IMG/VR virus record: IMGVR_UViG_3300045978_000375
Coordinates: 570-64,569 of that record
Direction: 5' to 3' (one strand)
Length of the DNA: 64,000 nucleotides
Origin: a virus
In this document: one piece after another, positions 40,764 through 53,814 of the stretch
Position numbering within the stretch: position 1 is the first letter of the stretch
Layout: each line of letters opens with the position of its first letter
Program-made: the position numbers and the translations under genes
Notes under the pieces: model-generated
What the model saw: only the letters and a program-made list of their open reading frames with translations
Database searches by the model: none
What the model was told of the DNA's origin: nothing

Positions 40764-41601
40764 TCGCCCCTGGTTCCTCTTGGGCACGCGGGTCCTCACT
40801 TGCGGGCGGTCCCGCCGGCTCTTGCTTCTTGGATGCGCGGAGTGAGATCCGCTTGCCGTCCTGCGCTGGCTCGGCAACGGCGGGCAGCTCCTTCGGAGGC
40901 GCCTCGTCGCCGTCCACGTCGATCACATCGATGCCGGTGATCTTCTCGAACACGCGCGCGTACATCTTGCGTTCGGCTTTGCCGAGGATGGCATCCGCGC
41001 CCATGCCGGAGTTCACCTTCACGGGGATGCGGGTGTCCATCGATCGTGCGTTACCCGTCTCGGCCGGTACTCCGAGCAGCTCCATGTCCTTGCCGTCGAG
41101 TCGCCACTTCGCCCAGAATGCAACGCAGGCGCCCTTGTCGCCAGAGAGCACCGGCACGGCGAGCTCGAACTCGAAGCCAGAGATGCCCGGCCATTCTCGC
41201 ACGATTCGCTTGAAACCGTTCTTCGCACCGTAGAAGCCGCTCGCGATGATGTTGAACTCGTTGTTGATGGGCCGGAACCCGCGGAGGAGCGCCTCTACGA
41301 GCACGTCGCGAACCGTCTGCCAGTCGTAGCCACCTTCCTTGTCCTTGTCGGTGAGGAAGCCGAGCTTCGTGCCCTGGAGCGGGAGAAAGTGTGTCTTGAT
41401 GGCGCCCTCGGTGAAGAGGTTCCGAAGCGCGTTCATGCCGCGCGCCATCGTCATCGCCTGGATCAGGGGGTTCTTATCCTTCAGAGCGGCGAGTCCGCAA
41501 TCGTGGACGATGCGTTCGACGTCAGCCGTGACCTTCGCGATCTTGCGCTCGGCATCGTCCTTGCTCTCGGGGTCGGTAGTGACTTGCTGCTGAATCGTCA
41601 T
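40756..41601 (-). CDS. putative single-strand annealing protein (RecT/Red-beta-like by position)
   Basis: 281 aa immediately downstream of the exonuclease and coupled to it. No definitive motif. Confidence 0.4.
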   Translation of the reverse strand: MTIQQQVTTDPESKDDAERKIAKVTADVERIVHDCGLAALKDKNPLIQAMTMARGMNALRNLFTEGAIKTHFLPLQGTKLGFLTDKDKEGGYDWQTVRDVLVEALLRGFRPINNEFNIIASGFYGAKNGFKRIVREWPGISGFEFELAVPVLSGDKGACVAFWAKWRLDGKDMELLGVPAETGNARSMDTRIPVKVNSGMGADAILGKAERKMYARVFEKITGIDVIDVDGDEAPPKELPAVAEPAQDGKRISLRASKKQEPAGPPASEDPRAQEEPGANG

Positions 41602-42719
41602 GCTCGTTTCTCCTGCAACTTGGTGGTGGTGCTCGTGCTGATGGCGCCGGCTGCACGGAGCTTTGCGTCGAGCTCCCGCACGGCGCCTGCCCCCTGGCCT
41701 TTGCCAGCCTTCTCGCGCATGACCTTCTCGACCTTCGAGATGCCGATCGTCATCGCGCGCGCAAAATCCTCGTCCGTGAAGCCTGCCGCCTCGAGCAACG
41801 GCCAGGCCTTCAGCGGGTCGAGCTCCCGGCGCGTCTCCTCCGTCACGGTGAGCCGCACGCCATCCGCGACGATGTCGCCGTGCGCCTCCACGTGGGCCTT
41901 CACGGCCGCCCGCACGCGCTGAGCGAAGTCGACGACGAGGTCAGCCTTCCGGAAGATCGCGACCTGCTCGGCTGGCGTCATCGTGTCGAGGCCGAACTCC
42001 ACGCTCTCGATGAGCGAACGGTCCGCGATGACGGCAAGGTCCCTGCGGAGCAGGGCATTTGCCGCCTCGCACTCGTGATTGCGCGGGCAGTGCGCGCAGT
42101 GCGACCCCGGATGAAAGACTCCGTCCCAGTTCACCACGCGCGCGACGAGCTCAGAGAGCCAGCGCTCGGCGCCGGCTCGGTTCATCGTGTAGTTCTCGAT
42201 CTCCTGCGTGCGGACCCAGAGGCCCGTCCAAGTGACCTCGTCGAAGTCTTCTGACGAAAGGAGCATCAACGCCGCGTAGCCCTTGAGCTGGTGAGCGTGG
42301 TCGCGGTCCTTCCTGCCAGTTTTCCAGTCGGCACCGCGGAGCGCACGCTCGGAAACGGCCGCAATGTCCGCGTGCCCGGTGAGCACGATGCCCGGCGCTA
42401 CCTCCTTCTCGACGCGGGTCTCAGTGAATGCACCTTGGAAGCTCGCCTTTACCTGACCCCAGAGCTTCACGCCCATGGCGCAGAGCATCCGGGTTTCGTC
42501 GGGGTTCGCGCCGTGCTCCTTAGCTACCGTGGGAATCGAGTCCCAGTCGATCTGGCCGGCACGTGGGAGTGTCTTCAGGATGGCGTGCGCGGCGGTGCCG
42601 TCGTCTGCCGCCTCGTGCGAAGCATTGATCGCCACCTTGCTCGGACGGATCGAGCCAGGGCAGCGCACCGCGAGCGGCAGCGCGCTACAGCGCAGGTTGA
42701 GCTTTTGCTGGTCTGCCAT
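41598..42719 (-). CDS. PD-(D/E)XK exonuclease with Cas4-like Cys cluster
   Basis: Start at MADQQK (ATG 42719). GHADI, DWKTG and QLKGY motifs. Cys at RCSALPLAVRC plus HCAHCPRNHEC. Confidence 0.65.
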   Translation of the reverse strand: MADQQKLNLRCSALPLAVRCPGSIRPSKVAINASHEAADDGTAAHAILKTLPRAGQIDWDSIPTVAKEHGANPDETRMLCAMGVKLWGQVKASFQGAFTETRVEKEVAPGIVLTGHADIAAVSERALRGADWKTGRKDRDHAHQLKGYAALMLLSSEDFDEVTWTGLWVRTQEIENYTMNRAGAERWLSELVARVVNWDGVFHPGSHCAHCPRNHECEAANALLRRDLAVIADRSLIESVEFGLDTMTPAEQVAIFRKADLVVDFAQRVRAAVKAHVEAHGDIVADGVRLTVTEETRRELDPLKAWPLLEAAGFTDEDFARAMTIGISKVEKVMREKAGKGQGAGAVRELDAKLRAAGAISTSTTTKLQEKRA

Positions 42720-42726
42720 CGTGTCC

Positions 42727-43056
42727 TTACCGCTTGTCGTCCACCTCGAGCGCACCGCGTGCGGCTGCCCGGAGAATGCCGAGAGCCTCGCGCAGCGGGT
42801 GTGGCACGGTTCCGAGCGCAAACACGTTGTCGATGCGCGCTTCAATGCTCGCGAGCGCTGCCCGCAAGTTCTCGCTCCTTGCTCGGAGCGCCGAGACCTC
42901 ACCCACGAGCGCGAGCTGCTCGGCGTAGGCGATGACTGCGTCCACCGCCTTGGTGGCGAGCTCCTCGGCCTCCTCCGTCTGCACGCCGCAAGCCTCATAG
43001 CCCTCGAGCAGGGCATCGATGGCGCAACGTCGAGCATATGCTCGTGCAGTGCTCAC
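42727..43056 (-). CDS. hypothetical helical protein
   Basis: 109 aa, high GC3, fits between neighbours. Confidence 0.45.
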   Translation of the reverse strand: MSTARAYARRCAIDALLEGYEACGVQTEEAEELATKAVDAVIAYAEQLALVGEVSALRARSENLRAALASIEARIDNVFALGTVPHPLREALGILRAAARGALEVDDKR

Positions 43057-43800: not shown

Positions 43801-44336
43801 CAGTGTCCCTCCTGGCGGAAAGAAAACTCTCGGGAGATCGTTTCGAGCTGCTTACCGTCGAGCAGCCCCTGGCCGATGCAGTCGAGCGCGTAGATGCAGG
43901 CCTCGACCTCGATCGAGGTCAGGTCCCGCTTTCGCGCTGCCTCGCCGAGGCCGACGCTGAACACGGTATAGCCGTGCGCCGGTCCGCGGCCGTACTCGTG
44001 ATCCTCCCGCTGGTCGCTCCATCTGTCGTAGTTCTTCGTGCCGAAGTAATTGTGCCGGAGCTTGCCTCCGCCCGAGAGAATGGCGTCCTTCGCGTCCAGT
44101 ATCACCCCACGGCGGCACTCGTTGATCGTCCCGCGGCAGACGAGTATGCCAGCGGCGAGGACCAACGCGTCGCGGTCAAGCTCGACGCGGACAGCAAGCG
44201 CCTCTGCTATCTGCTTGCGCCTGGATCTGTTCGCTTCAAGCCTATTCGCGAGGTCCGACATCTCCTTCCGGAGGCGCAGGTCCTCGGCCGCTAGCTCGAC
44301 GCGGAGTGCAGCCATGCTGGGCATGCTCATCGCCAT
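43800..44336 (-). CDS. hypothetical protein
   Basis: 178 aa. N-terminal coiled coil plus a globular domain. Confidence 0.45.
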   Translation of the reverse strand: MAMSMPSMAALRVELAAEDLRLRKEMSDLANRLEANRSRRKQIAEALAVRVELDRDALVLAAGILVCRGTINECRRGVILDAKDAILSGGGKLRHNYFGTKNYDRWSDQREDHEYGRGPAHGYTVFSVGLGEAARKRDLTSIEVEACIYALDCIGQGLLDGKQLETISREFSFRQEGH

Positions 44337-44695
44337 TCCTCCGCCGTCAAAAGAGCCGCTGGCGGCAACCCCGAATCCCTCGCCGCCGCATCGATCGCCG
44401 CGGCCCGGTCGCTCTCGAGCTCACCCGACTCGAGCCCATACGACCCAACCAGCCGCATCGACGCACGCTCGAACACGAGCACGCTGTAGAGCGACGGCGG
44501 AATGGCCGCGGCGTCCACTTGGTTCGGCGATCCGAACTCCCTCGTGATCGCTCGGTCGAAGCTGTCCTGAGTCGGCTCGGAGTCGTCTGCGAGCTGCAGG
44601 AACTGCGGGAGGCGTGGCGCGCTCAGGCTCACGACTTCGACCAGGTCGAGCTCACCGGGAGCGCACGGGCGCGTCGGGGTGGCGAGGGCGGTCAC
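44327..44695 (-). CDS. hypothetical acidic protein
   Basis: 122 aa, overlap-coupled. Confidence 0.4.
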   Translation of the reverse strand: MTALATPTRPCAPGELDLVEVVSLSAPRLPQFLQLADDSEPTQDSFDRAITREFGSPNQVDAAAIPPSLYSVLVFERASMRLVGSYGLESGELESDRAAAIDAAARDSGLPPAALLTAEEWR

Positions 44696-45009
44696 GGGCG
44701 CACCTGCGACAGGCCCGGCGGGAAGATTTTCCCGAACGCCTCTGCCTCATCCGAGTAATTGAAGTGGCCCCAGTGCCGGCGAGCTTCGAAGGCAACGCGA
44801 GCACGATCGGCGCCGCGGAACTCGCTCACCGTTCGAGCACCGTCGCTAGACAGCATGCGTGCTACCCACTCGTCGCCCTCGCGCCCGAGGGTGTAGTGAG
44901 TGCTGATGTAGGCGGCGCGGTGGGATGCGGCTGGCCCGCGCGCTCCGCTCGAGAACGTAGCCCCGAACGCCGCGGCGGACATGCCGCCCTCACGACGACG
45001 GCGGGCCAT
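44692..45009 (-). CDS. hypothetical protein
   Basis: 105 aa, ATG 45009 abutting the upstream stop. Confidence 0.4.
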   Translation of the reverse strand: MARRRREGGMSAAAFGATFSSGARGPAASHRAAYISTHYTLGREGDEWVARMLSSDGARTVSEFRGADRARVAFEARRHWGHFNYSDEAEAFGKIFPPGLSQVRP

Positions 45010-45195
45010 CTAAGCCGCCCTCCCCGCGCTGTGGACGAGCCGGATGCCGGTGCGGGTGGGGAGAGCGGGCACGGCCGGCGGTGGCTCGGGAGCCTCGACG
45101 CCGGGCGGGACGGGCGGCGCCGACGGCGCGACCCGGGGGAGCGGAAGCCACACGGCCAGCGCGAACCAGCCGGGGATCTTGATTGCTACGAGCAT
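45010..45195 (-). CDS. small TM / Pro-rich protein, first gene of the leftward operon
   Basis: ATG 45195 chosen because it sits at the end of the PL-like cassette. The track start TTG 45231 is the TTG of a TTGACA box. Confidence 0.4.
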   Translation of the reverse strand: MLVAIKIPGWFALAVWLPLPRVAPSAPPVPPGVEAPEPPPAVPALPTRTGIRLVHSAGRAA

Positions 45196-45231
45196 GGCAA
45201 CGAGTATTGCCGCGGCAACGATTGTTGTCAA
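45193..45231 (-). promoter_or_regulatory. PL-like promoter-operator cassette
   Basis: Minus strand reads TTGACA-acaatcg-TTGCCgcGGCAA-tactcg-TTGCC-ATG. 30 of 39 nt identical to the cassette at 45781-45819. Confidence 0.6.
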
Positions 45232-45292
45232 CAGTGGCGAGCGCGTAGCCGGTCGATTTTTCGTACTTCGGCCTCTTTTGGCTATGAAAAAG

Positions 45293-45733
45293 TCATCCAG
45301 CTCGGGTGCCGGACGAGCTTGGCCTAACCCCCGTGCTCGGAGGGTCCGGGGTTGCCTCAGCTGCTTCCACTGCCATTAGAAAGCTTCGCCACTGCTCAGC
45401 GGTGCGCGCCCCACGGGCTGCCTTGGCTGCGGCTCGAGCGGCTGGGCTCCACTCGCGCTCCGCGAGTACCACCTCGAGCGCAGTCAGCCGAGTTCGGCGC
45501 GGCGCCCCTCGGCCGCTCACGAGCCAGTGCAGGTCAACGTTGTTGCCCTCGGCGATTTTCCGGTGAACGTCGCCTGTGCCGGGGACTTTATCCGGACGCT
45601 TGTCGCTTTCCCGCACGAGTCGCGAGACCGTCTGCCGCTTGAGCTTGGCGTTCTTCGCTACGTCGGCAACGCTCAGCTTTCCGGAGCCGCCGTTCTCTTG
45701 GATCCAACGGATGCGGTCAGCGAAGCTGCGCAC
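45293..45733 (-). CDS. cI-like HTH repressor
   Basis: GTG 45733. HTH LSVADVAKNAKLKRQTVSRLV and ...DLHWLVSGRG. Divergent from the Cro-like gene. No S24 peptidase domain seen. Confidence 0.6.
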   Translation of the reverse strand: MRSFADRIRWIQENGGSGKLSVADVAKNAKLKRQTVSRLVRESDKRPDKVPGTGDVHRKIAEGNNVDLHWLVSGRGAPRRTRLTALEVVLAEREWSPAARAAAKAARGARTAEQWRSFLMAVEAAEATPDPPSTGVRPSSSGTRAG

Positions 45734-45749
45734 CCGAGGGAGACTGCTA

Positions 45750-45765
45750 GGCAATTGTCGTTGCC
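45750..45765. promoter_or_regulatory. operator-like dyad GGCAA-N6-TTGCC upstream of the repressor gene
   Basis: Same dyad as in both cassettes. Lies in the spacer of a possible TTGCGG-N17-CAGTCT-N7-GTG leftward promoter. Confidence 0.5.
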
Positions 45766-45780
45766 GCAAGGCGAACACGC

Positions 45781-45819
45781 TTGACAATATCTGTTGCCAT
45801 GGCAATATGCGTTGCCGTG
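45781..45819 (+). promoter_or_regulatory. PR-like promoter-operator cassette
   Basis: TTGACA-atatctg-TTGCCatGGCAA-tatgcg-TTGCC-GTG. Perfect -35 hexamer, two overlapping dyads, start codon immediately after. Confidence 0.6.
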
Positions 45820-46131
45820 AGCGTAGGTGAGCGAATCGCCCTGGTTCGGGGCTTGTCTGGTCTGTCGGCAGCTGAACTTGGGCGCAGAGCCGGGCTCTCG
45901 AGGGGCACGCTGCCTCTCCTCGAAGCCGGCACGAACAAGCAGCCGGGAGCGAAAACGCTGCTCGCACTGAGCCAGGCGACGGGGGTCCCGATGGAGTGGT
46001 TCTTGGCTGGCACGGGTGACGCACCGACGCCTGAAAGCGTGAAGGCGGCACTCGGAATCTCGAACGCCGAAGACCCATCCCCCGACTCCAACGCCCAGCC
46101 GAACGGCAAGGCGAAGGAGCCGGCAGCGTGA
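45817..46131 (+). CDS. Cro-like XRE-family HTH protein
   Basis: LSAAELGRRAGLSRGTLPLLEAG...LLALSQATGVPMEWFLAG. GTG 45817 preferred by analogy with the PL cassette. ATG 45799 is also possible. Confidence 0.6.
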   Translation: MSVGERIALVRGLSGLSAAELGRRAGLSRGTLPLLEAGTNKQPGAKTLLALSQATGVPMEWFLAGTGDAPTPESVKAALGISNAEDPSPDSNAQPNGKAKEPAA

Positions 46132-46808
46132 GCGCGATTGCCGTCGCCGACGCGAAGCTCCCGACCTCGTACGTGAAGGCGAGGGACGCGCTCGAGAAGT
46201 GCGTCGAGCTCGACGAATGCAAGGAGTGGAAGGACAAGGCCGCCGCGCTCGCCTCGTACGCGAAGCAGGCGGACGATGAGGAGCTCTACAAGTCCGCGAT
46301 GAAGATCAAGGGCCGGGCGGTTCGGCGCATGGGGGAGCTGCTGAAGGAGCTCAACCGACCGGAGCAGGGCGGAAGGCCACCGAAGCCGAAGGAAAACGTG
46401 GGAGCCACCGCCCCCGTTTCGCAGCTTGCGCTCGCCAAAGCAGCCGGCCTCTCCGCTGACCAAGCAAAGCAGGCGATCCGTGTGGCCAACATCCCCAAGC
46501 GGGAGTTCGAGCGGCTCATCGAAGCCGAGGCACCGCCGACCGTAACTGAGCTTGCCAAGATGGGCACCAAGCCCGTCCATCGCACCGCGTCTCACCTCGG
46601 TGGTCGGGACGCCACGGAGTTTTCCGACGCGATCAAGGTGCGCGGTCGCCTGCGCGACCTTGCCGACATCTGCGGAAGCGTGACTCCGACCGCCGCCGTT
46701 CGCGGCTCCCAAGACTACGACCACCCGAAGATGCGCGGCTGGTCCAAGACGATCGCGGCGTGGCTCGAACGGCTCGACGCTGCCCTCGAGAAAGCGAAAG
46801 AGACATGA
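46128..46808 (+). CDS. hypothetical protein with HTH-like segment
   Basis: 226 aa. SQLALAKAAGLSADQAKQAIRVANIP. Confidence 0.45.
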   Translation: MSAIAVADAKLPTSYVKARDALEKCVELDECKEWKDKAAALASYAKQADDEELYKSAMKIKGRAVRRMGELLKELNRPEQGGRPPKPKENVGATAPVSQLALAKAAGLSADQAKQAIRVANIPKREFERLIEAEAPPTVTELAKMGTKPVHRTASHLGGRDATEFSDAIKVRGRLRDLADICGSVTPTAAVRGSQDYDHPKMRGWSKTIAAWLERLDAALEKAKET

Positions 46809-47239
46809 ACGACGCGCAACTAACTGCCCTCGTGCAGAGCGAGGTGGATGCCGCGCTCGATGCTGGAATTCCGGTTCACAAGAACACGGTTCGTAGTCAA
46901 ATCGTTGGAAGGCACTGCGAGCACAGCGATTCAGATTTCGCGCTCGCCTGCGCCCACCACGCGATCGGAGACATCGTTGGGCGCCTGATTCGCAATGCGA
47001 AGAAAGCCGAGGCGGAGGGCCCGGATCCGCAGCTCGTGCTTCCGGGCTACAAGCATTTGCAGCAGCGGTACGCGATCGACCGCGATGGTGAGTCGTACCT
47101 GGTTCGCCTTGAGGACATGACGGTCGAGGAGGGCCGCTCGAAAGCGGCGGCCCTGCGGGTGTTCGCCCAAGGAGCACTGGCGCATGCTGACGAACTCGAC
47201 GCGTACTTCGACAACATCGAAGCCACGGCTGCTCAATAG
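46805..47239 (+). CDS. hypothetical protein
   Basis: ATG 46805 overlapping the upstream TGA. 144 aa. Confidence 0.45.
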   Translation: MNDAQLTALVQSEVDAALDAGIPVHKNTVRSQIVGRHCEHSDSDFALACAHHAIGDIVGRLIRNAKKAEAEGPDPQLVLPGYKHLQQRYAIDRDGESYLVRLEDMTVEEGRSKAAALRVFAQGALAHADELDAYFDNIEATAAQ

Positions 47240-47351
47240 ACCCATGCGCCGCCTCCTCGCCCCTGCGTCCCGCACCCGCAAGAGCTGCTCCTACGTGCTC
47301 CGAGCGAAGCCGAAGAAGAAGCGCGCCAGACGCGCCGAGGAGAACTGAGTC

Positions 47352-48203
47352 ATGGCCATCGAGATCAAGCACCGATTCACAGGCACAGTCCTCTTCAAGA
47401 GCGAAACTGCCAAGAGCACGCGCGAAGCCGTGATCGAGGCGGTTTCCGCGGGCGCCAACCTCGCGCGCGCCGACCTCGCGGGCGCCAACCTCGCGGGCGC
47501 CAACCTCGCGGGCGCCGACCTCGCGGACGCCAACCTCGCGGGCGCCGACCTCGCGGACGCCAACCTCGCGGGCGCCAACCTCGCGGGCGCCAACCTCGCG
47601 CGCGCCGACCTCGCGGGCGCCGACCTCGCGGGCGCCGACCTCGCGGGCGCCAACCTCGCGCGCGCCGACCTCGCGGGCGCCGACCTCGCGGGCGCCGACC
47701 TCGCGGACGCCAACCTCGCGGGCGCCAACCTCGCGGGCGCCGACCTCGCGGGCGCCGACCTCGCGGGCGCCGACCTCGCGGGCGCCCGATCTCTGCCTGC
47801 GGGCACCGAAGCGAAGGACCCTCCAGAGCCCTACGATCGCAACCGAGCGATCGATTACGCCGCACGTGCAGTCAGGTATCGCGAGCGCCACCCGGACGTT
47901 CCAGTCGTCGAGCGGCTCGACAGCAGGATACTCGAAGCCATCACGACCGGCGGCTGCACGCTGGAGATGGGTTCGTGGCACCAGTGCGAAACCACACATT
48001 GTCGTGCGGGCTGGGCGATCCACCTCGCAGGTGAGCCCGGATATGCGCTGGAGCGGCGGTACAGCGCGGAGCACGCAGGGCGGCTGATCTACCTCGTGAG
48101 CACGGGTCGTTGCCCGCATTTTTTCGCGACTAATGAGAGAGCGCTTGAGGATATCCGGCTCTGCGCCGCACGCGAGCAGCAACCCGAGGGAGCAAGCGCG
48201 TAG
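47352..48203 (+). CDS. pentapeptide-repeat protein with Cys/His-containing C-terminal domain
   Basis: 22 consecutive A(G/R/D)A(N/D)L pentapeptides (47448-47777). C-domain contains GSWHQCETTHCRAGW ... GRCPHFF. Confidence 0.85.
   Translation: MAIEIKHRFTGTVLFKSETAKSTREAVIEAVSAGANLARADLAGANLAGANLAGADLADANLAGADLADANLAGANLAGANLARADLAGADLAGADLAGANLARADLAGADLAGADLADANLAGANLAGADLAGADLAGADLAGARSLPAGTEAKDPPEPYDRNRAIDYAARAVRYRERHPDVPVVERLDSRILEAITTGGCTLEMGSWHQCETTHCRAGWAIHLAGEPGYALERRYSAEHAGRLIYLVSTGRCPHFFATNERALEDIRLCAAREQQPEGASA
47448..47777 (+). repeat. 22 tandem near-identical 15-bp units (coding pentapeptide repeats)
   Basis: Units gcgggcgcc(a/g)acctc and variants. A 60-bp higher-order unit is repeated (ARADL AGADL AGADL A.ANL). 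Confidence 0.95.
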
Positions 48204-48458
48204 GTGAAACACTCTCGCAAGCTCGCCATCGTGCCCGCGCTGTCACCGGAGGAACGCCGGGAATGCGAGCGGGACTCCAGGTTCGACGTTGTGAACGGCC
48301 GGCGCGAGCTCGGTCTGACGCAGCTCGGCCTCGCGCAGAAGCTCACGATCTCGGTCTCGAGCGTCGAGGACTACGAGACCGGCAAGACCAAGGTCCCCGG
48401 GTGGGTGCTGAAGGCGATCGAGCGGCTGGTGAAGGCGGCGCGGAGGGAGGCCGCCTGA
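48204..48458 (+). CDS. XRE-family HTH protein
   Basis: GLTQLGLAQKLTISVSSVEDYETGKTKVP. Confidence 0.6.
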   Translation: MKHSRKLAIVPALSPEERRECERDSRFDVVNGRRELGLTQLGLAQKLTISVSSVEDYETGKTKVPGWVLKAIERLVKAARREAA

Positions 48459-48826
48459 TGGCCAAACAAACCAGCCCCCGCATCTCGAGCGCCGCGGCCA
48501 GGCTGCTCGCGAAGCTCAGAGAGTACAGGTACGCGTGGCGCGAAGCAGTTGTCACGCTCGAGTGGCCACGCGGCACGGCGTGGCTCTGCAAGCCCAGTGA
48601 GCTCGTAGAGCTTCTGACGCACGAGCATGAGGCGGAACTTATTCTGCACGCCCTCTGTAGCTCAGCGTCATTCGACGGCTCGGCGCAAAGCGCCGCCCTG
48701 ACTTGGATTCGACGCGACGAGAAGCTGCGCACCGCCGCGGTGCGGGCTGTCGTGCACGACAAGCGCGTCGCGAAAGTCCGCTCCCCGCGGGTGGTCGGGA
48801 AGCGGAAGGGGAGGGCTTTGCGATGA
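48458..48826 (+). CDS. hypothetical protein, paralog A
   Basis: ATG overlaps the upstream TGA. Shares KQTS.RIS.AAA.LLAKLR and RVAKVRSPRV..KRKG termini with 49412-49681. Confidence 0.5.
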   Translation: MAKQTSPRISSAAARLLAKLREYRYAWREAVVTLEWPRGTAWLCKPSELVELLTHEHEAELILHALCSSASFDGSAQSAALTWIRRDEKLRTAAVRAVVHDKRVAKVRSPRVVGKRKGRALR

Positions 48827-49119
48827 AGATTCACATCGTCGGCTTTCCCGTGCGAGTCGGCAATCACCAGCGCCAACTCTGCGCGTGGTGCGGCTACGTG
48901 CTGGTCGACGACAATCTCGAGCAGGTGATGGTCGCACCCAACGAGGACGGTTCTCCTGGCGCAGCTCCCGGTGTCTTTACAATGGGCCAGCTGGTTTCGG
49001 TCTCCGAGGAGTCGGGCTTGCGGTGCATGTCACTACTCGCGCACGTGGACGGAATGCCGCTCCCAGCTGGCTTCTGCGGTGACGATGGGCGCAGGCGAAT
49101 ATGGGCGGTGCAAATATGA
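48823..49119 (+). CDS. hypothetical protein
   Basis: ATGA-coupled. 98 aa. Confidence 0.45.
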   Translation: MKIHIVGFPVRVGNHQRQLCAWCGYVLVDDNLEQVMVAPNEDGSPGAAPGVFTMGQLVSVSEESGLRCMSLLAHVDGMPLPAGFCGDDGRRRIWAVQI

Positions 49120-49415
49120 AATCCGACCTCGTGCTGCTCACCGAATGCCTCGAGTCAGAGCTCGAGGACGAAACCCGCGAGGCGTTCGCCGGCATGCTGG
49201 GCGACATCGAGAGCGGCAAGTGGCGGAAGCTCACGAAGCGTCAGCGTGAGTGGGTCGAGGGCGTCCACGGCCGGCTCGGGCTCGACCCCGGCACCGAGAA
49301 CCTCGTCTCGAGCGGTGCGGTGAAGCCGACAGCTGCCGAGCGCGCGGCGCTTGCCAGTACGCTCGCTAGCCTCGGGCCGAAGCCGCTGAAGCCGCCAACG
49401 CGGAGGAGCGCATGA
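49116..49415 (+). CDS. hypothetical protein
   Basis: ATGA-coupled. 99 aa. Confidence 0.45.
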   Translation: MKSDLVLLTECLESELEDETREAFAGMLGDIESGKWRKLTKRQREWVEGVHGRLGLDPGTENLVSSGAVKPTAAERAALASTLASLGPKPLKPPTRRSA

Positions 49416-49681
49416 ACGCCAGAAAGCAAACCTCGTCCCGCATCTCGGGGGCCGCGGCCAGCCTGCTCGCGAAGCTTCGGAACGTTTCGCCGTGGGAGAT
49501 GATCGTCCGGTCTGACAACACGCGCCGCACAGTCTCCCGCGCCTACCTGCCGCTCTGCACGGTCGGGAAGCTCCGGTCGATACTCGGTAGCGCGCTCGGC
49601 CAAGACGAAACGCCCGGCCAGCGCGTCGCCAAGGTCCGCTCGCCCCGGGTGAAGCGGAAGGGTGGGAGGGCGATGCGCTAA
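49412..49681 (+). CDS. hypothetical protein, paralog B
   Basis: 89 aa. N- and C-termini match 48458-48826 at both DNA and protein level. Confidence 0.5.
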   Translation: MNARKQTSSRISGAAASLLAKLRNVSPWEMIVRSDNTRRTVSRAYLPLCTVGKLRSILGSALGQDETPGQRVAKVRSPRVKRKGGRAMR

Positions 49682-49953
49682 TGCTTGGGTTCAAGCCAAA
49701 CCACGAAATGTGGGCGCGCGTGAACGCTGTCATCATGGGCGAGAACATGGCGGAGGTGACCGTAACCTTCATCAGCGCGCTCTGCTCCATGCTCATCCAG
49801 GCTGGAGCCGCTACTGACGAGGCACACGCACGGGCGCACCTGGCAGCGCTTCTGCTCTCACCCGACTCCTCGGCAAAGGCCGGTTCTCTGCTGCCGCTGC
49901 TCGCGCCGGAGCTCGCGAAGCTACGGCGAGAGGAAGGGGTTTGGATCACATGA
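49681..49953 (+). CDS. hypothetical protein
   Basis: 90 aa, coupled. Confidence 0.4.
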   Translation: MLGFKPNHEMWARVNAVIMGENMAEVTVTFISALCSMLIQAGAATDEAHARAHLAALLLSPDSSAKAGSLLPLLAPELAKLRREEGVWIT

Positions 49954-50564
49954 CGCAAGCTCCGCGGGAACTACGTTGTACGAAGTGCGAGTCGAGCTGG
50001 CACACGGCCGAGCAGCATGATGCGTGCTTGGCGTCGTTCGACGCTGCGCTACAAGCTGGAGCTTTGGCGAAGCAGAGGGTAACGCCAATCTCATCGTCGG
50101 GACTCGTTAGCGACCGTTCGCAACTCGATGAGACGCTGCTTCCGAACGGGCAGCAGAAGTCATACCTCGTGCTCTCGGAGGAGGAGCGAGCGAAAGGGTT
50201 CGTTCGGCCGGTGCGGACGGCGTACCTGCACGTTGGCGTTGCCGGACCTAAGCACCCGACGCGCGATGTTACAGACGAAGAACGCACGCGCTACGGCTGG
50301 GGAACTGGGCCGGACGAGTTCACGAAGTTCGAGGTCTATCCGGAGGGTGCGAACGGGGAAGGTCGCTACTGGACGCAGAACGATCTCGACAAGGTCGGCA
50401 GGGGGTGCGGGACGCGAACGACGATGGCCCTCCCGCTCGCTGAGACGTACGCGCGTAAACCTGGCTTCTACGGTGGCACGTTCTGCTGCGGGTGCCGGAC
50501 GCACCTACCCGTTGGTGCGGATGGCGAGTTCGTCTGGGAAGACGGCTCGCGCGTAGGGACCTGA
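49950..50564 (+). CDS. hypothetical Cys-containing protein
   Basis: ATG 49950 (ATGA overlap). CTKCESSWH ... GCGTRTT ... FCCGCRTH. Confidence 0.5.
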   Translation: MTQAPRELRCTKCESSWHTAEQHDACLASFDAALQAGALAKQRVTPISSSGLVSDRSQLDETLLPNGQQKSYLVLSEEERAKGFVRPVRTAYLHVGVAGPKHPTRDVTDEERTRYGWGTGPDEFTKFEVYPEGANGEGRYWTQNDLDKVGRGCGTRTTMALPLAETYARKPGFYGGTFCCGCRTHLPVGADGEFVWEDGSRVGT

Positions 50565-50567
50565 GCC

Positions 50568-50840
50568 ATGCCACCCACCGCATACCCCCTACACCTGCGC
50601 CGCTCGATGCGACGAGATGGCGCCGCTCGAATGCGCAGCGTGGCAAGAGCGCGCCGGAAAGCGCTGGATGAGGTGCTCGCTTGGCTGGCTGCCCTACTGG
50701 CGATCGTGGCGCTCGGCCTCGCCGTGTGGACGGTCGTAGAGGAGTTCGGTCCGGGTGAGCAGGAGCGGATCCGCTGCGCGCCGACGGAGGTGTGCGGGGA
50801 GGAGCGGCTCGACCGGGGAGCGAGGGGGAGCGATGGCTGA
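50568..50840 (+). CDS. small membrane protein
   Basis: TM LAWLAALLAIVALGLAVW. Confidence 0.45.
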   Translation: MPPTAYPLHLRRSMRRDGAARMRSVARARRKALDEVLAWLAALLAIVALGLAVWTVVEEFGPGEQERIRCAPTEVCGEERLDRGARGSDG

Positions 50841-51030
50841 GCGCCCCAGCGTGGTCGTCCTCGACGTGACGCAGCTCACCCAGGCAGTCGCGGACTACGT
50901 GACGAAGCACTGCCTCATGGCGCCCGGTCCGGTTCGCATCGACTTTCAGATCTATCAAAGCCTGAAAGAGCCAACTCGAATCGAGGCGACGGTAAGGGCG
51001 ACGACGGGGCCGGAGGTGTTGGTTGTCTGA
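50833..51030 (+). CDS. hypothetical small protein
   Basis: Internal ATG overlapping the upstream gene end. 65 aa. Confidence 0.35.
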   Translation: MAERPSVVVLDVTQLTQAVADYVTKHCLMAPGPVRIDFQIYQSLKEPTRIEATVRATTGPEVLVV

Positions 51031-51505
51031 GTTACCGACTCGAGCTCTTTCTCTGTACGCGCCTTGGGCGTGGGCGATCATCTGCGCCGGAAAGGACGTC
51101 GAGAACCGCAACTGGTTTGCGGCGGGACGAGGCTTCTTCGGCGACGCGAAGTTTCGCGGCTCGTTCTGGATTCACGCGAGCCTGTTCGGAGGCGATCGTG
51201 GCCGGAAGCTCGAGGATCTCGAGGACGAGATCAGTTCGATGCTGGATATGGCCAGAGATGCTGGTTGTGATTCGGGCACGCCGGCCGAAGTGCTTCAGTG
51301 GTGCCTCGGGGCGCGCGGCAAGATCGTCGGCTCGGCTCGCGTGACCGGCGCCGTGTCCGCAAGCTCGTCGCCGTGGTTCGTTGGGCCGATGGCGCTTACG
51401 CTGGCGGAGCCGGTGGCATCTCGCCTGCAAGTGCCAGTGCGCGGTGCGCTTGGATTCTGGACGGTATCGCCAGACGTGCTGGCGCAGCTCCGGGAGGTCG
51501 CTTGA
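51023..51505 (+). CDS. ASCH (PUA-like) domain protein
   Basis: LSLYAPWAWAIICAGKDVENRNW contains the G-K-x-x-E-x-R ASCH signature. TTG start 6 nt after GGAGG. Confidence 0.6.
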   Translation: MSELPTRALSLYAPWAWAIICAGKDVENRNWFAAGRGFFGDAKFRGSFWIHASLFGGDRGRKLEDLEDEISSMLDMARDAGCDSGTPAEVLQWCLGARGKIVGSARVTGAVSASSSPWFVGPMALTLAEPVASRLQVPVRGALGFWTVSPDVLAQLREVA

Positions 51506-52122
51506 CCGTCGCCGTCCTCTATTGCGACGAGGGCCGGAACGCTCCCTACGTCAAGCTCAAGGCGGCCGGCGAGGACCTGGACTTGTGGGGAGTCTCGAGG
51601 GACGCGCGCAAGTACGACGGGCCGCATACGGTCGTGGCGCATCCGCCGTGCCGCAACTGGAGCAAGCTTAGCTACCTCGCGAAGGACGATGATAGCGACT
51701 GCGCTCTCCGTGCCATCGATCAGGTTCGCAAGTTCGGTGGGGTACTCGAGCATCCAGCGTCGTCCAGACTCTGGTTGCAGATCAATCTACCGAGCGGCCA
51801 CCGTGACGATTTCGGAGGACGGCGGATTACACTGAACCAAGTCGAGTGGGGGCACGTCGCCAGAAAGCCGACATGGCTCTACCTCGTTGGCGTGTGCTCG
51901 CCGGGCCCGATGCCGCCCCCGCGTGAGCCGACGCACTGGTGCAGCGGGTTTCGGACCGCTGGTAAGTCCTACTCGCCCGCATACTACAAGCAGCGCGGCT
52001 CCGCCGTCCCGCTCGGCATCAAAGTCTGCTCGGCACAGCAGCGCCGCCGCACCCCACCCCTGTTCGCCGAATACCTCGTAAGGCTCGCTCGTGCAGCAGC
52101 GGAAGCTCGGAGGGCAGCGTGA
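51502..52122 (+). CDS. C5-cytosine-methyltransferase-like protein lacking a clear SAM-binding motif I
   Basis: TTG overlapping the upstream TGA. HPPCRNWS (PPC-type motif IV), GGVLEHP (ENV-like), ARKPTWLYLVG (motif VIII-like). The N-terminus LYCDEG sits where F-x-G-x-G is expected. Confidence 0.45.
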   Translation: MTVAVLYCDEGRNAPYVKLKAAGEDLDLWGVSRDARKYDGPHTVVAHPPCRNWSKLSYLAKDDDSDCALRAIDQVRKFGGVLEHPASSRLWLQINLPSGHRDDFGGRRITLNQVEWGHVARKPTWLYLVGVCSPGPMPPPREPTHWCSGFRTAGKSYSPAYYKQRGSAVPLGIKVCSAQQRRRTPPLFAEYLVRLARAAAEARRAA

Positions 52123-52352: not shown

Positions 52353-52702
52353 ATGACACCCGCCTCCTTTGCCCCGCCGACGTCTGCGAGCGCTTCGGAT
52401 GCTCGCTGCGAAAGGCACTCAAGATCATGCGCGAGGCCGGCGCGCGGAAGTCTGGCTCGATGGTCCGGCTCGAACCTGAGAAACTGGAGGCATGGTGGCT
52501 AGCGCAAAAGGCGACCGCTTCGGCTTCTGGCTCAGGGGACGGACCTGGTACACGTGCGATCCCGTCACCCGCCGCGACGTCTCGACCCGCTGCCGGGACC
52601 TTGAAGCTGCTCGAAGGTGGCGTGCGGCCCGTGAGCGTATTGCAGCCGATCCGGCAATCGCAGTCCAGGCGCTCGCGACGTTCGGGGACGAGTGCAGGAT
52701 GA
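52349..52702 (+). CDS. excisionase-like HTH protein
   Basis: GTG overlapping the upstream TGA. LLCPADVCERFGCSLRKALKIMREAG...VRLEPEKLEAWW. The frame runs 210 nt into the integrase gene. Confidence 0.45.
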   Translation: MNDTRLLCPADVCERFGCSLRKALKIMREAGARKSGSMVRLEPEKLEAWWLAQKATASASGSGDGPGTRAIPSPAATSRPAAGTLKLLEGGVRPVSVLQPIRQSQSRRSRRSGTSAG

Positions 52703-53814
52703 TGCTCGACGCGCTCGAAGCCCTGGGCCGCCCGACGGCCGACTACGAGCACCGGCTCGGGCACTGGACCCGCGTGCTCGGCAACGACTGCCCGCTCTCC
52801 GATGTCGGCCCAGCCGCCGTCGACGCGTTTATCGCGCAGCGCAGCGCCGAGGGGGTTACGAACCACACCATCTCGAAGGAGCTGAAGGCGCTCGTCAGGA
52901 CGCTCCGGCAGGCGAAGCGTGCTGGCCGGTACGCGGGGGCACTTGAGGTCCTGCGCCCGCTCGGCTTCACCGCCGGGTATGTGCCTCGGACACGCACCCT
53001 GACGCTCGTGGAGCTCCAGGTCCTGCTCGGCGAGCTCGAGCCGGAGGAGCGAGCGTTCGTCGTGCTGCTCGTCGCCTTTGGCCTGCGCCGGGGCGAGGCT
53101 GCCCGTGTGCTTCCCTGCGACCTCGATACTGCCAACTGGGTGGCCCGGGTGCGTGGGACGAAGACGGCCGGGGCTCTCCGGGACCTGCCCATCCTCGAGC
53201 CCTTCCGGCCGCTCGTCGAGGCGGTCCTGCCCTACCTGCCGCTCGGCGCCTGGGTGCGCTCGACCCAGTACACGCGGGTCCTCCTCCGGGCGGCGGCGCG
53301 CGCCAAGCTCGAGCCGGTGACGGCGAACGACCTCCGCCGGACCCATGCAACGCTGCTCCGGAACTGGAAGGTGGACCGGGACACGGCCCGGACGCTGCTC
53401 GGGCACTCGCCGAAGTCGCAGCTGCTCGAGACCGTCTACGACAAGCCGAGACCCCACGAGCTCGCTGCTCGCGCCGGCGACCTCTCCGCCCTCACGGTCG
53501 CCCTGGCCCCGATTGCAGAATCACTGCAGTCGGCACCAAAAACATCCACTTCTCTCGGAGAAACCCGCGGCAGTGAACCGCCATGGGGGCCGACCTATAG
53601 CCCCGCCGGGTCTGCCTCGCCAGTGTGTTCGCGGGGTTACGGGCCAGGAACTGGCCGGGAAGAGCCGGACACCAGCGCAGAATCACTGCAGTCGGCTGGC
53701 CCCGCGGCGTGGGCGCTTGAGTTCGCCCGTGAGGCGCTGAACGTCGAGCCGAAGGCGACCATCTTCCTTGGCACCGGCGTGATCCTCCGCCGCAAGAGGA
53801 GGGACGTTGGCTAA
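52492..53814 (+). CDS. int: tyrosine integrase with long C-terminal extension
   Basis: ATG after GGAGG. AFGLRRGEA (R), GTKTAG (K), LRRTHATLL, LLGHS (H), ETVYDK (Y). About 110 further codons cross a repeat-bearing region. Confidence 0.8.
   Translation: MVASAKGDRFGFWLRGRTWYTCDPVTRRDVSTRCRDLEAARRWRAARERIAADPAIAVQALATFGDECRMMLDALEALGRPTADYEHRLGHWTRVLGNDCPLSDVGPAAVDAFIAQRSAEGVTNHTISKELKALVRTLRQAKRAGRYAGALEVLRPLGFTAGYVPRTRTLTLVELQVLLGELEPEERAFVVLLVAFGLRRGEAARVLPCDLDTANWVARVRGTKTAGALRDLPILEPFRPLVEAVLPYLPLGAWVRSTQYTRVLLRAAARAKLEPVTANDLRRTHATLLRNWKVDRDTARTLLGHSPKSQLLETVYDKPRPHELAARAGDLSALTVALAPIAESLQSAPKTSTSLGETRGSEPPWGPTYSPAGSASPVCSRGYGPGTGREEPDTSAESLQSAGPAAWALEFAREALNVEPKATIFLGTGVILRRKRRDVG
53515..53534 (+). 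repeat. 20-bp direct repeat copy 1 (gcagaatcactgcagtcggc)
   Basis: Exact second copy at 53677-53696. Contains the internal dyad TGCAG-aatca-CTGCA. Confidence 0.9.
53677..53696 (+). repeat. 20-bp direct repeat copy 2
   Basis: Identical to 53515-53534. 162 bp apart, both inside the int ORF tail. Confidence 0.9.

Follow-up and report, generated by a model that had tools for sequence, protein, structure and literature searches.

We consider here one of the pentapeptide-repeat proteins (PRPs) encoded by phages. In the 64-kb stretch of viral DNA that we analyzed (hereafter, the window), a gene following a Cro-like gene encodes a pentapeptide array of near-perfect regularity joined to a C-terminal domain with a cluster of Cys and His residues. 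A first-pass annotation, made from the sequence alone, had suggested that the protein could be a DNA mimic directed against restriction or other host defences, or a modulator of the host gyrase. To evaluate this suggestion, we considered the gene, its array, the distribution and architecture of its relatives and the variation of their arrays.

The gene and its pentapeptide array

The open reading frame proposed in the first-pass annotation is a real gene, with an ATG start preceded by a Shine-Dalgarno sequence and a product of 283 aa (Table 1). The identical 283-aa protein is encoded on six metagenome contigs. There is no second copy of the gene within the 64-kb window, and a megablast search with window positions 44000-52000 as the query returned no near-identical phage in GenBank. 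The full-length AF2 model of the protein (pTM 0.57) consists of a cap, a beta-helix, a low-confidence linker and a helical domain. The N-terminal cap, which is kept across the PRP-type members of the family, is modelled as two strands (residues 3-7 and 13-17) and a helix (residues 23-32) with a block pLDDT of 85-95. The linker contains neither helices nor strands (block pLDDT 64-76), and its motif is conserved within the closest subfamily.

Table 1. Features of the PRP locus, in window coordinates
Feature	Position	Strand	Basis
Gene divergent from the Cro-like gene	45293..45616	-	Gene call on source contig; no Pfam hit on record
Cro-like HTH gene, head of the rightward operon containing the PRP gene	45781..46131	+	Pfam HTH_3, E 2.5e-8; PHROG transcriptional repressor/regulator families
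Shine-Dalgarno GAGGAG, 9 nt 5' of the PRP-gene ATG	47337..47342	+	Read off the sequence
PRP gene, whole (283 aa + stop: N-cap, pentapeptide array, linker, Cys/His C-domain)	47352..48203	+	ORF list; phrog_31265 match, both halves
N-terminal cap, aa 1-32, MAIEIKHRFTGTVLF..REAVIEAV, predicted beta-hairpin and helix capping the solenoid	47352..47447	+	Conservation and AF2
Array, 22 in-frame 15-bp units, aa 33-142	47448..47777	+	TRF, unit table, PF00805, AF2, Foldseek
Linker, aa 143-168, with conserved DPPEPY.R motif	47778..47855	+	AF2; motif conservation
Helical conserved C-domain, aa 169-283, undescribed family and fold	47856..48200	+	AF2, profile and fold searches
Signature motif W209-H210-x-C212-x-T-T-H216-C217-R218-x-G220-W221	47976..48014	+	HMM-selected alignments
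XRE-type HTH gene, directly 3' of the PRP gene	48204..48458	+	Pfam HTH_31 and HTH_3

By its position, the PRP gene belongs to the early genes of a temperate phage. It lies within the rightward operon, separated from the Cro-like gene by two ORFs and abutting the XRE-type HTH gene, in agreement with the early placement between these two genes given in the first-pass annotation; its relatives likewise occupy early or accessory positions. At the junction of the last two genes, the PRP stop codon and the GTG start codon of the XRE-type gene read TAGGTG, and since the start codon directly follows the stop codon, translational coupling of both genes is likely. Judging from an HTH-like stretch in its translation, the product of the gene divergent from the Cro-like gene would be CI-like, in which case it would mark the lysis-lysogeny switch. 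A scan for promoters and terminators near the PRP gene found nothing above the shuffled background; the order of the genes points to early expression.

The array consists of 22 uninterrupted A(G/R/D)A(N/D)L units, as described in the first-pass annotation and confirmed by TRF (period 15, 22.7 copies, 92% matches, score 568) and by a table of the units. Only four types of unit are present, namely AGADL (nine copies), AGANL (seven), ARADL (three) and ADANL (three), and they differ at 3 of the 15 nucleotide positions (4, 5 and 10), all differences being non-synonymous. Based on published PRP structures, the varying positions should face outward. The additional 60-bp higher-order repeat that had been proposed was rejected, since autocorrelation gave no excess at this period: the self-identity of the array was 0.937 at a lag of 60, compared with 0.927 at a lag of 15, 0.941 at 75 and 0.950 at 150.

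The match of the array to the Pentapeptide family of Pfam (PF00805) is far beyond chance (E 5.3e-31, 106 bits versus a cut-off of 20.2), and its 22 contiguous units place it in this superfamily, for which we took at least eight contiguous A(D/N)LXX repeats and a score above the Pfam gathering threshold. A pentapeptide beta-helix is the predicted fold of the array: beta-bridges recur every five residues in the AF2 model, from about residue 66 to 146, and Foldseek matched the array to PRP crystal structures with E values of 2e-9 to 1e-6. The predicted beta-helix has about 5.5 coils, a net charge of -12 over the 22 units and a pI of 4.05. An assembly artefact is an unlikely origin for this array: its longest internal exact repeat is 69 bp, so that reads of 150 nt are able to resolve it, and the six contigs agree on the protein.

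A constant C-terminal domain behind interchangeable solenoids

The first-pass annotation could not place the C-terminal domain, and our searches led to the same result. The C-terminal 141 aa matched nothing in Pfam, NCBIfam or PADLOC. Additionally, the domain had no sequence-profile match in the PDB, where the best Foldseek hit reached an E value of 5.4 and a TM of 0.2, and no known fold was recovered from BFVD; across these searches, the sole hit was a 74-aa fragment of the C-domain family itself. The AF2 model of the domain is confident and has six helices (pLDDT 89.8, pTM 0.81). Our literature search found no paper on this family; the papers retrieved concerned Qnr-type PRPs, an Agrobacterium host PRP and the Hailong defence system.

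In the present analysis, we defined the WHxCxTTHCRxGW family as a helical domain of ~105 aa with a set of conserved residues, all of which are present in the window protein (P184, M206, H210, C212, H216, C217, R218, G220, Y247, S250, P255, F257 and D267). The core W-H-x-C-x-T-T-H-C-R-x-G-W is near-invariant in the HMM-selected alignments, and the motif C-x-[TS]-x-H-C-[RK]-x-G occurs in 248 of the 262 HMM-selected proteins. H210, C212, H216, C217 and R218 are near-invariant across the family; H210 is kept in 372 of 373 sequences, and C212 is substituted in 3 of 262 proteins. A different outcome was obtained for GRCPHFF, which the first-pass annotation had also singled out in this domain: Val usually stands in place of its Cys, the relatives have Asn, Asp, Trp or Tyr instead of its His, and this unconserved sequence was discarded as a second metal motif. 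A Cys-His-Asp triad formed through D190 was also rejected, as His occupies this position in ~13% of the members.

At E<=1e-3, the C-domain profile detected 1,934 representatives of 50%-identity clusters. The relatives comprised 350 proteins from the first search, 212 IMG/VR loci and 95 genome loci in many phyla, and their carriers are phages and prophages of Proteobacteria, Myxococcota, Actinomycetota, Acidobacteriota, Planctomycetota, Bacteroidota and Cyanobacteria. Across phages of many phyla, the C-domain is 40-70% identical. Stand-alone C-domains represent ~10% of the family, and its N-terminal partners other than pentapeptide arrays include Hexapep repeats (PF00132, E 7e-15 in protein P0220), HEAT-like repeats with a weak HEAT_2 match and unrecognised Cys-triplet repeats. 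No enzymatic fusion partner was found, the partners being only repeat modules and caps. Some phages have two or three tandem paralogues of the gene. The C-domain is the constant part of this family; the solenoid is interchangeable and evolves very fast. The window gene is not unique in its architecture, which is already present in PHROG 31265 and in Ralstonia phages deposited in GenBank. The overall E value of the match between the PHROG 31265 profile and the window protein is 2.5e-44, with profile positions 1-150 covering residues 1-146 and positions 148-247 covering the C-domain (E 2.1e-15).

The genomic position of the relatives varies in its details. In Bordetella prophages, the family gene is located between the CI/Cro switch and RecT/YqaJ, while in lytic Ralstonia Autographiviridae it is located in the early region, 5' of the primase gene; in other relatives, it is found among small genes near Cro or DnaB. 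When the neighbours of 75 loci were clustered in search of a conserved partner gene, no cluster was represented in more than 6 loci, which suggests that the protein probably works on its own.

Gain, loss and shuffling of in-frame units

The first-pass annotation regarded the DNA identity of the repeat units as exceptional among natural PRPs. Within the C-domain family, it is instead the rule: arrays range from 0 to 52 units with almost no synonymous differences between units, none being observed in the 240 codons of a 48-unit array (L007) or in the 210 codons of a 42-unit array (L014). One cyanobacterial member (L125) displays the ordinary degenerate DNA pattern, with 36 minor synonymous codons out of 149.

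The same annotation had also anticipated a recombination-prone array of variable length, and here the family agrees with it. Alleles with 97-100% identical flanks differ in their number of units (29/17, 17/7, 23/17 and 46 units), and 7, 17, 23, 30, 31 and 46 units occur in a single Bordetella prophage lineage, the 46-unit array coming from a complete replicon. The L070/L071 pair was left out of the allele comparison because its repeat register had been mis-called. These arrays change as 15-bp units are gained, lost and shuffled in frame and, with near-identical units and copy numbers that differ between same-flank family alleles, they have the properties of an in-frame VNTR locus. Within the window phage's own lineage, the array is the same in the six contigs. 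Collapse of the repeats during short-read assembly could account for some of the differences in copy number, for example for that between L005 and L008, which amounts to one block with 90-bp exact repeats on its flanks, and the repeat turnover could represent neutral slippage without adaptive value.

A separate observation concerns viral metagenomes in general, in which arrays of this kind break short-read assemblies and give rise to false contig ends and apparent terminal repeats.

Candidate functions and known systems

The reading that we favour, although we would give it somewhat less than an even chance, is that the gene provides a temperate phage with an early accessory protein of modular build, consisting of a conserved Cys/His effector domain attached to a hypervariable solenoid. 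The general build of the family would be a cap, an expandable tandem-repeat solenoid, a flexible linker and the ~105-aa helical Cys/His domain. The Cys/His cluster may form a metal centre, probably with zinc, or a reactive-thiol centre, and the C-domain would use it early in infection to engage a cellular target or ligand that is broadly conserved. The solenoid attached to this domain would offer a variable surface for binding, occlusion or decoy, with its length and surface adjusted in the course of an arms race; as most members have an acidic solenoid, it may resemble DNA. The array would change by replication slippage or unequal recombination; as these events keep the reading frame, they would alter the length of the rod and produce no on/off switching. 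The net role would be host takeover or counter-defence, for which a large unstudied phage family that combines a variable rod with a conserved Cys/His domain is a good candidate.

DNA mimicry and gyrase action, the functions put forward in the first-pass annotation, are weakly supported for this protein. For the former, we considered that the acidic pentapeptide beta-helix would mimic B-DNA and titrate DNA-targeting defences, such as type I R-M and BREX, with the C-domain only dimerising or stabilising it. The low pI and negative charge of the window array, a net acidic charge in 135 of 160 family arrays (84%), an early position like that of T7 Ocr or lambda Ral and the recovery of MfpA, Qnr and AlbG structures by Foldseek are all consistent with it. 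Nevertheless, an acidic bias is built into the A(D/N)LXX consensus, the remaining 25 arrays (16%) are neutral or basic, and it is the C-domain, not the helix, that is most conserved. A low-confidence linker of ~20 residues separates the two, so a continuous MfpA-like dimeric rod is not expected. Moreover, the same C-domain occurs alone or behind hexapeptide, HEAT-like or Cys-triplet repeats, so that the family cannot owe its unity to DNA mimicry by a PRP. In a published test, neither McbG nor QnrB, two PRP 'DNA mimics', inhibited BREX (PMC7261183). No homology to Ocr or ArdA was detected, as there was no Pfam or PHROG match, the C-domain had no PDB fold match and the full-length model matched PRPs only. 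We thus consider DNA mimicry by the helix unlikely as an account of the protein. It seems very improbable to us that the protein modulates DNA gyrase or topoisomerase IV in the manner of Qnr or MfpA, whether by shielding the host enzyme or by inhibiting it to the advantage of the phage. Such a role would agree with the PRP fold, with the weak matches to Qnr, MfpA and AlbG in NCBIfam and Foldseek, and with the fact that phages target gyrase by means of other proteins, such as Igy and Gip (PMC10886550). However, the window protein scored far below the NCBIfam cut-offs for the Qnr family (NF033086, 39.8 bits versus 240), for the QnrA, B, S, C, D, E and VC models (22-42 bits versus 425-500) and for MfpA (NF000349, 35.2 bits versus 360), its identity to Qnr, MfpA and AlbG structures in Foldseek was 14-29%, and its best structural matches were idealised or cyanobacterial PRPs; the kinship to Qnr, MfpA and AlbG implied by the first-pass annotation was therefore not upheld. 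The Qnr beta-helix is broken by the surface loops A and B, which are needed for gyrase protection, whereas the window array runs in perfect 15-bp register without interruption. In MfpA, which has ~180 aa, the dimerisation helix at the C-terminus is attached straight to the beta-helix, whereas a low-confidence linker and a separate six-helix domain follow the beta-helix of the window protein. Finally, a range of 0 to 52 units is hard to square with a fixed gyrase interface.

Many members of the family reside in prophages beside the immunity region, and defence genes, too, typically vary rapidly and have tandem paralogues. These features would suit a prophage gene for defence or superinfection exclusion that is expressed in the lysogen and benefits the host. 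We regard such a role as improbable, in view of the presence of the gene in the early region of strictly lytic Ralstonia Autographiviridae, the co-orientation of the window gene with the Cro-led lytic operon and the lack of a PADLOC match. As for the repeat itself, it might work at the DNA level, as iteron-like sites or a recombination hotspot, or be an assembly artefact, the protein being incidental in both cases. The identity of the units at all synonymous sites would fit a DNA-level role, and arrays often break assemblies, but the frame is kept across 0-52 units in hundreds of lineages together with the conserved cap and C-domain, and different lineages use unrelated 15-, 18- and 9-bp units, all of which encode solenoid-type repeats. 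The replication initiator and DnaB genes are 8-10 kb away, and the short internal exact repeats and the six concordant contigs speak against an artefact. We consider this last explanation extremely improbable.

Returning to the tethered effector domain, a broader proposal, which is possible but on the doubtful side, is that the family represents a class of phage effectors, so far unrecognised and spread across phyla, that serve counter-defence or host takeover. In this class, the new metal- or thiol-dependent WHxCxTTHCRxGW domain would be the constant effector or adaptor and the solenoid, be it pentapeptide, hexapeptide, HEAT-like or Cys-triplet, a quickly re-tunable module for specificity and length, diversified by in-frame slippage. 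If true, the gene would serve phages as a 'contingency locus' in conflicts between proteins or between protein and DNA, and could be likened to the ankyrin/PRANC and LRR effectors of eukaryotic pathogens. For this domain family of ~1,900 clusters, we found no Pfam or NCBIfam entry, solved structure or literature. Should the reading hold, the early functions of phages would gain from this domain a fold that is new and an activity that is probably new as well, its pairing with several unrelated expanding repeat scaffolds would be an undescribed design principle of phage proteins, and the hypervariable arrays would offer a natural model for the evolution of solenoid length and surface. The annotation of such proteins as quinolone-resistance-like "pentapeptide repeat proteins" is misleading for the C-domain family. 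The question is directly testable, since cultured carriers exist, namely the Ralstonia phages RsoP1IDN and RSK1 and Bordetella bronchiseptica prophages.

Among known systems, Qnr, MfpA, AlbG and McbG share with the window protein the right-handed quadrilateral beta-helix of A(D/N)LXX repeats and its acidic surface. In contrast, the window array has neither interrupting loops nor a directly attached dimerisation helix, the protein has a linker and a 105-aa Cys/His domain, it is encoded by an early phage gene, and the array length is hypervariable in its family. The best matches of the array, with 40-57% identity, are the near-consensus, uninterrupted repeats of Np275/Np276, HetL, Rfr23/32, Alr5209 and the designed 'Beta1' solenoid (PDB 4yc5), which are chromosomal or designed proteins and lack the C-domain. 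The type III effectors SopA and NleL, recovered by Foldseek and NCBIfam through the helix, have a similar design, with a Cys-dependent domain after a beta-helical repeat scaffold, but this is an analogy only: their catalytic domain is HECT-like and has ~400 aa, whereas the all-helical C-domain has ~105 aa and no Foldseek match in the PDB, and a HECT-like ligase of this type was rejected. Ocr and ArdA are acidic, elongated proteins encoded by early phage or plasmid genes; they have no sequence or fold relationship to the window protein and no counterpart of its Cys/His domain. Poxvirus ankyrin/PRANC proteins combine variable repeats with a conserved C-terminal adaptor and occur in paralogous copies. 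Like these proteins and in-frame VNTR or contingency loci, to which it has no homology, the present family joins a fast-changing repeat module to a constant domain and includes paralogues. The same family, with cap, array and C-domain, is represented by the 'putative pentapeptide repeat protein' of Ralstonia phages in PHROG 31265 (RsoP1IDN gp4, RSK1, RpY1, DLDT/BHDT phages, Bakolyvirus). These proteins are also encoded by early-region genes, and their C-domain is ~39% identical to that of the window protein; their arrays are more degenerate in sequence (A/Y, D/N, L, R/G...) than the window array, and their carriers are lytic podoviruses of a beta-proteobacterium, whereas the window phage is temperate.

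The repeat gene and its setting

The window covers nearly all of a 64.7-kb JGI metagenome contig and represents a temperate phage genome, for which no close relative was found in GenBank. The repeat gene is the fourth in a rightward operon led by the Cro-like gene; it is preceded by two ORFs without known function (phrog_33995 and phrog_32407) and directly followed by an XRE-type HTH gene. The placement between the Cro-like and HTH genes described in the first-pass annotation is therefore confirmed, with two ORFs intervening after the Cro-like gene. From this Cro-led operon position, we can reasonably infer that the gene would be expressed early. A GAGGAG Shine-Dalgarno sequence is located 9 nt upstream of its ATG, and the TAGGTG junction, where the HTH gene begins with GTG immediately after the TAG stop, suggests that both genes are translationally coupled.

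Main features of the window and of the region around the repeat gene
Feature	Position	Strand	Remark
Large terminase	1131-2633		
PD-(D/E)XK exonuclease	41598-43037	-	
Divergent gene, read as CI-like	45293-45616	-	Reading of the ORF translation; called gene without Pfam hit on the record
Cro-like gene	45781-46131	+	
Open frame, 821 aa	45747-48212	-	Rejected as a gene
Repeat gene	47352-48203	+	ORF, 283 aa
Linker motif DPPEPYDR	47817-47840	+	Residues 156-163
TAGGTG junction	48201-48206		
Small paralogous ORFs	48455-48826; 49412-49681	+	3′ of the HTH gene
Direct repeat in these ORFs	48464-48516 / 49424-49476		85% identity
Direct repeat in these ORFs	48754-48802 / 49612-49660		78% identity
Tyrosine integrase	52492-53814	+	
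Replication initiator	56228-57262		
DnaB helicase	57255-58667		

The two small paralogous ORFs have divergent middles and share an N-terminal KQTS.RIS.AAA.LLAKLR sequence and a basic C-terminal RVAKVRSPRV..KRKGRA.R sequence. Within a run of plus-strand genes, the integrase gene separates the small early genes from those for the replication initiator and DnaB, a placement that is atypical relative to lambda-like layouts. The 821-aa minus-strand frame spans the whole repeat gene, with the array read as GAREV repeats; it was discarded as a by-product of high GC and the repeat, homology supporting the plus frame.

Tandem Repeats Finder reported one array at 47447-47786 (period 15, 22.7 copies, 92% matches, score 568). 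Cut in register, positions 47448-47777 yield 22 units of four types, GCGGGCGCCGACCTC (AGADL, nine copies), GCGGGCGCCAACCTC (AGANL, seven), GCGCGCGCCGACCTC (ARADL, three) and GCGGACGCCAACCTC (ADANL, three), in a frame supported by Pfam Pentapeptide PF00805 (E 5e-31), in agreement with the 22 in-register pentapeptides of the first reading. The 60-bp super-period claimed at the same time was not upheld, since self-identity is 0.937 at lag 60 vs 0.927 at lag 15, 0.941 at 75 and 0.950 at 150. Only nucleotide positions 4, 5 and 10 of the unit vary, and each difference alters the amino acid, with no synonymous difference among 110 codons. Because the longest exact repeat inside the array is 69 bp, and exactly the same 283-aa protein is encoded on six metagenome contigs, an assembly artefact is unlikely.

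A conserved C-terminal domain with exchangeable repeat partners

The array is followed by a linker (residues 143-168) and a Cys/His domain (residues 169-283; C-domain). Residues 143-283 have no match in Pfam, NCBIfam or PADLOC, and a C-domain profile search of PDB sequences found nothing. Based on a 79-sequence alignment, AlphaFold2 gave a confident six-helix C-domain model (pLDDT 89.8, pTM 0.81), for which Foldseek found no match in the PDB (best E 5.4, TM 0.2); its sole match in BFVD was a 74-aa fragment from the same family. The domain is thus as unplaceable as it had seemed at first reading, and the modelled fold appears to be undescribed. A literature search on the C-domain family found nothing.

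The C-domain matched 350 proteins of a clustered protein database at E<=1e-3, the top hits 70% identical and most of the proteins with PF00805. Among 1.84 billion cluster representatives, the C-domain-only profile matched 1,934 at E<=1e-3 and 1,379 at E<=1e-10. We located 212 C-domain loci on IMG/VR viral contigs and 95 in GTDB species genomes, the latter including Alpha-, Beta- and Gammaproteobacteria, Myxococcota, Acidobacteriota, Actinomycetota, Planctomycetota, Verrucomicrobiota, Bacteroidota, Cyanobacteria and others. Both halves of the protein matched PHROG 31265 (function unknown; E 2.5e-44). Among cultured phages, the family is represented in 19 records for Ralstonia phages and in one Flavobacterium phage; gp4 of the Ralstonia phage RsoP1IDN is a 264-aa "putative pentapeptide repeat protein" whose early-region gene lies upstream of the primase.

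The C-domain signature is W209-H210-x(1-10)-C212-x-T-T-H216-C217-R218-x-G220-W221, with P184, M206, E234, Y247, S250, P255, F257 and D267 also conserved. The core C-x-[TS]-x-H-C-[RK]-x-G is present in 248 of 262 HMM-selected proteins, and C212 is replaced in three of the 262. GRCPHFF, singled out earlier as a Cys/His motif, did not stand as such: in relatives, its Cys is usually Val and its His is variable. In the predicted models, the signature is located in a loop, with C217 directly before a helix. The four near-invariant His and Cys residues would most simply form a metal (zinc-type) or reactive-thiol centre. A Cys-His-Asp triad involving D190 was also considered; D190 is His in approximately 13% of members, which argues against it.

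Members of the pentapeptide repeat protein (PRP) type consist of a cap (M..EIKHRFTGAVLF..E..S.REAV, or alternatively L..IL..H..W..G..G.RA.L), a run of near-perfect A-x-A-[DNY]-L units and a linker with ARN.P.G....DPPEPY.R. The proline-rich DPPEPY.R is conserved in the closest subfamily, although the linker is modelled at low confidence without regular structure; this motif might serve in docking, or it might cap the helix at its C-terminal end.

Approximately 10% of members consist of the C-domain alone. In the following, L-numbers denote related loci and P-numbers related proteins. The C-domain also follows hexapeptide left-handed-helix repeats (P0140 and P0220, PF00132 E 2e-10 and 7e-15; also L055), other 5-7-residue beta-solenoid-like repeats (P0190, P0239, P0262, P0166), HEAT- or LRV-like helical repeats (P0197, P0182), and long Cys-rich triplets, (CS[DGRY])n, of 181, 268 and 351 aa in L146, L148 and L158, respectively. 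Since it occurs alone or behind several kinds of repeat, the C-domain is the constant element and some expandable tandem repeat the variable one. The Cys-triplet fusions were found in Bacteroidota, Nitrospira, Cyanobacteria and Saccharibacteria, and the triplet repeat has no Pfam match. This repeat, (C-S-[DGRY])n or (C-[HT]-[GD])n, is length-variable and has its own conserved N-terminal cap (L146 2764-3309, L148 2524-3330, L158 2254-3309; L139, L154, L120, L151).

Some phages carry two to three tandem paralogues with differing arrays (L063, L064, L065, L067). No conserved neighbour gene was found, the best neighbour cluster occurring in 6 of 75 loci; the early/accessory context is consistent across loci. 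In Bordetella prophages, the gene lies between the CI/Cro switch and RecT/YqaJ, and elsewhere among small genes near Cro/DnaB.

Hypervariability of the array

Among 365 non-identical proteins, the longest array ranges from 0 to 52 units, and the 22 units of the window protein exceed those of approximately 89%. A length of exactly 22 units is over-represented, with 10 of 365 proteins as opposed to 2-3 each for 20, 21, 23 and 24 units; besides the window protein, the carriers are L023, L028, L038, L046, L057, L067, L072, L081 and P0138, whose C-domains are only 53-64% identical to that of the window.

DNA-level homogeneity is the rule within the family: minor synonymous codons number 0/240 in the 48-unit L007, 0/210 in L014 and 0/155 in L006, and genomes of 54-60% GC are no exception. 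The cyanobacterial L125 has an ordinary degenerate pattern (36/149).

The length-variable array proposed at first pass was borne out family-wide by alleles with near-identical flanks and unequal unit counts: L005 and L008 (29 and 17 units; flanks 100% identical over 420 bp downstream and 120 bp upstream), L012 and L083 (17 and 7; 100% downstream) and L011 and L012 (23 and 17; 99.8% downstream), bearing in mind that repeat collapse during short-read assembly may account for part of this variation in copy number. L005 and L008 differ by a single block with 90-bp exact repeats on either side. Bordetella alleles differ in unit order and type, beyond one collapsed block, their units being combinations of {G, D, R, ...} with {N, D, Y}. 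The complete B. bronchiseptica XX35 replicon L168 has 46 units of nine types with no synonymous difference, and its neighbouring genes are in the same order as those of L083. Annotated as 'plasmid pA' (NZ_CP132331.1, 39-kb circular), it has genes for an integrase and an excisionase, for YqaJ-type recombinase fragments and for the 46-unit repeat protein. It has the look of a prophage in circular or excised form and not of a plasmid.

The gene is cut by the contig end at the array in about 20 of 79 IMG/VR loci (in or beside it in L010, L013, L015, L019, L020, L024, L025, L032, L035, L036, L039, L041 and others), and on three contigs it lies at both ends (pairs L016/L041, L063/L069 and L065/L074). 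The repeats evidently interrupt assembly from short reads and may give rise to spurious 'terminal repeats' in viral contigs. In some database proteins, the array appears as APTSR runs, which is its +1-frame translation; in P0216 and P0114, APTSR/VPTSR runs occur inside or before the array, and these frameshifts into and out of it could be sequencing errors or real indels.

According to structural studies of PRPs, the rod grows by approximately 4.8 Å per four units. Because the unit is 15 bp, slippage alters rod length and does not switch the gene off. Variable residues are i-1, i+1 and i+2 of A(D/N)LXX, with i-2 (Ala, 94%) and i (Leu, 96%) fixed; the three variable positions face outward in published PRP structures (PMC8145042).

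Proposed function and comparison with known pentapeptide repeat proteins

We tentatively propose, at somewhat less than even odds, that the protein acts as a stand-alone early accessory factor. The core activity would reside in its C-domain, which would bind or modify a cellular target or ligand that is broadly conserved. The tethered solenoid would evolve quickly and be tunable in length, serving as a module for binding, occlusion or decoy, with its variation presumably adaptive; the net role would be in host takeover or counter-defence.

The DNA-mimic anti-restriction factor initially suggested is a less probable account. The window array is acidic (pI 4.05, net charge -12), as are 135 of 160 family arrays; however, the other 25 are neutral or basic, the non-PRP repeat partners of the C-domain are not DNA-like, and the PRP "DNA mimics" McbG and QnrB did not inhibit BREX (PMC7261183), so such mimics do not automatically block defences. 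DNA mimicry is possible for the subfamily of the window protein and is not the best-supported unifying mechanism. A prophage defence or exclusion factor is improbable, given that the gene also occurs in lytic Autographiviridae and is oriented with the Cro operon. Still more doubtful is a Qnr-like gyrase modulator, as the NCBIfam scores for Qnr (39.8 vs a cut-off of 240) and MfpA (35.2 vs 360) are far too low for membership of either family, and we consider a DNA-level function or an artefact very improbable indeed.

The full-length AlphaFold2 model predicts a capped beta-helix, a low-confidence unstructured linker and the helical domain; a pTM of 0.57 points to the lack of a fixed orientation between the domains. 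The best Foldseek matches are the designed consensus solenoid Beta1 (4yc5, 57% identity), Np275/276, HetL, Rfr proteins and Alr5209; MfpA, QnrB1, AhQnr, AlbG and EfsQnr matched at 14-29% identity, and NleL and SopA were recovered via their beta-helix. The window gene adds a new member to a family present in databases without any description, made experimentally tractable by cultured Ralstonia phages and Bordetella prophages. Compared with known PRP systems, this family combines an apparently undescribed domain and fold with interchangeable repeat partners, and it also shows VNTR-like dynamics in phage early genes.
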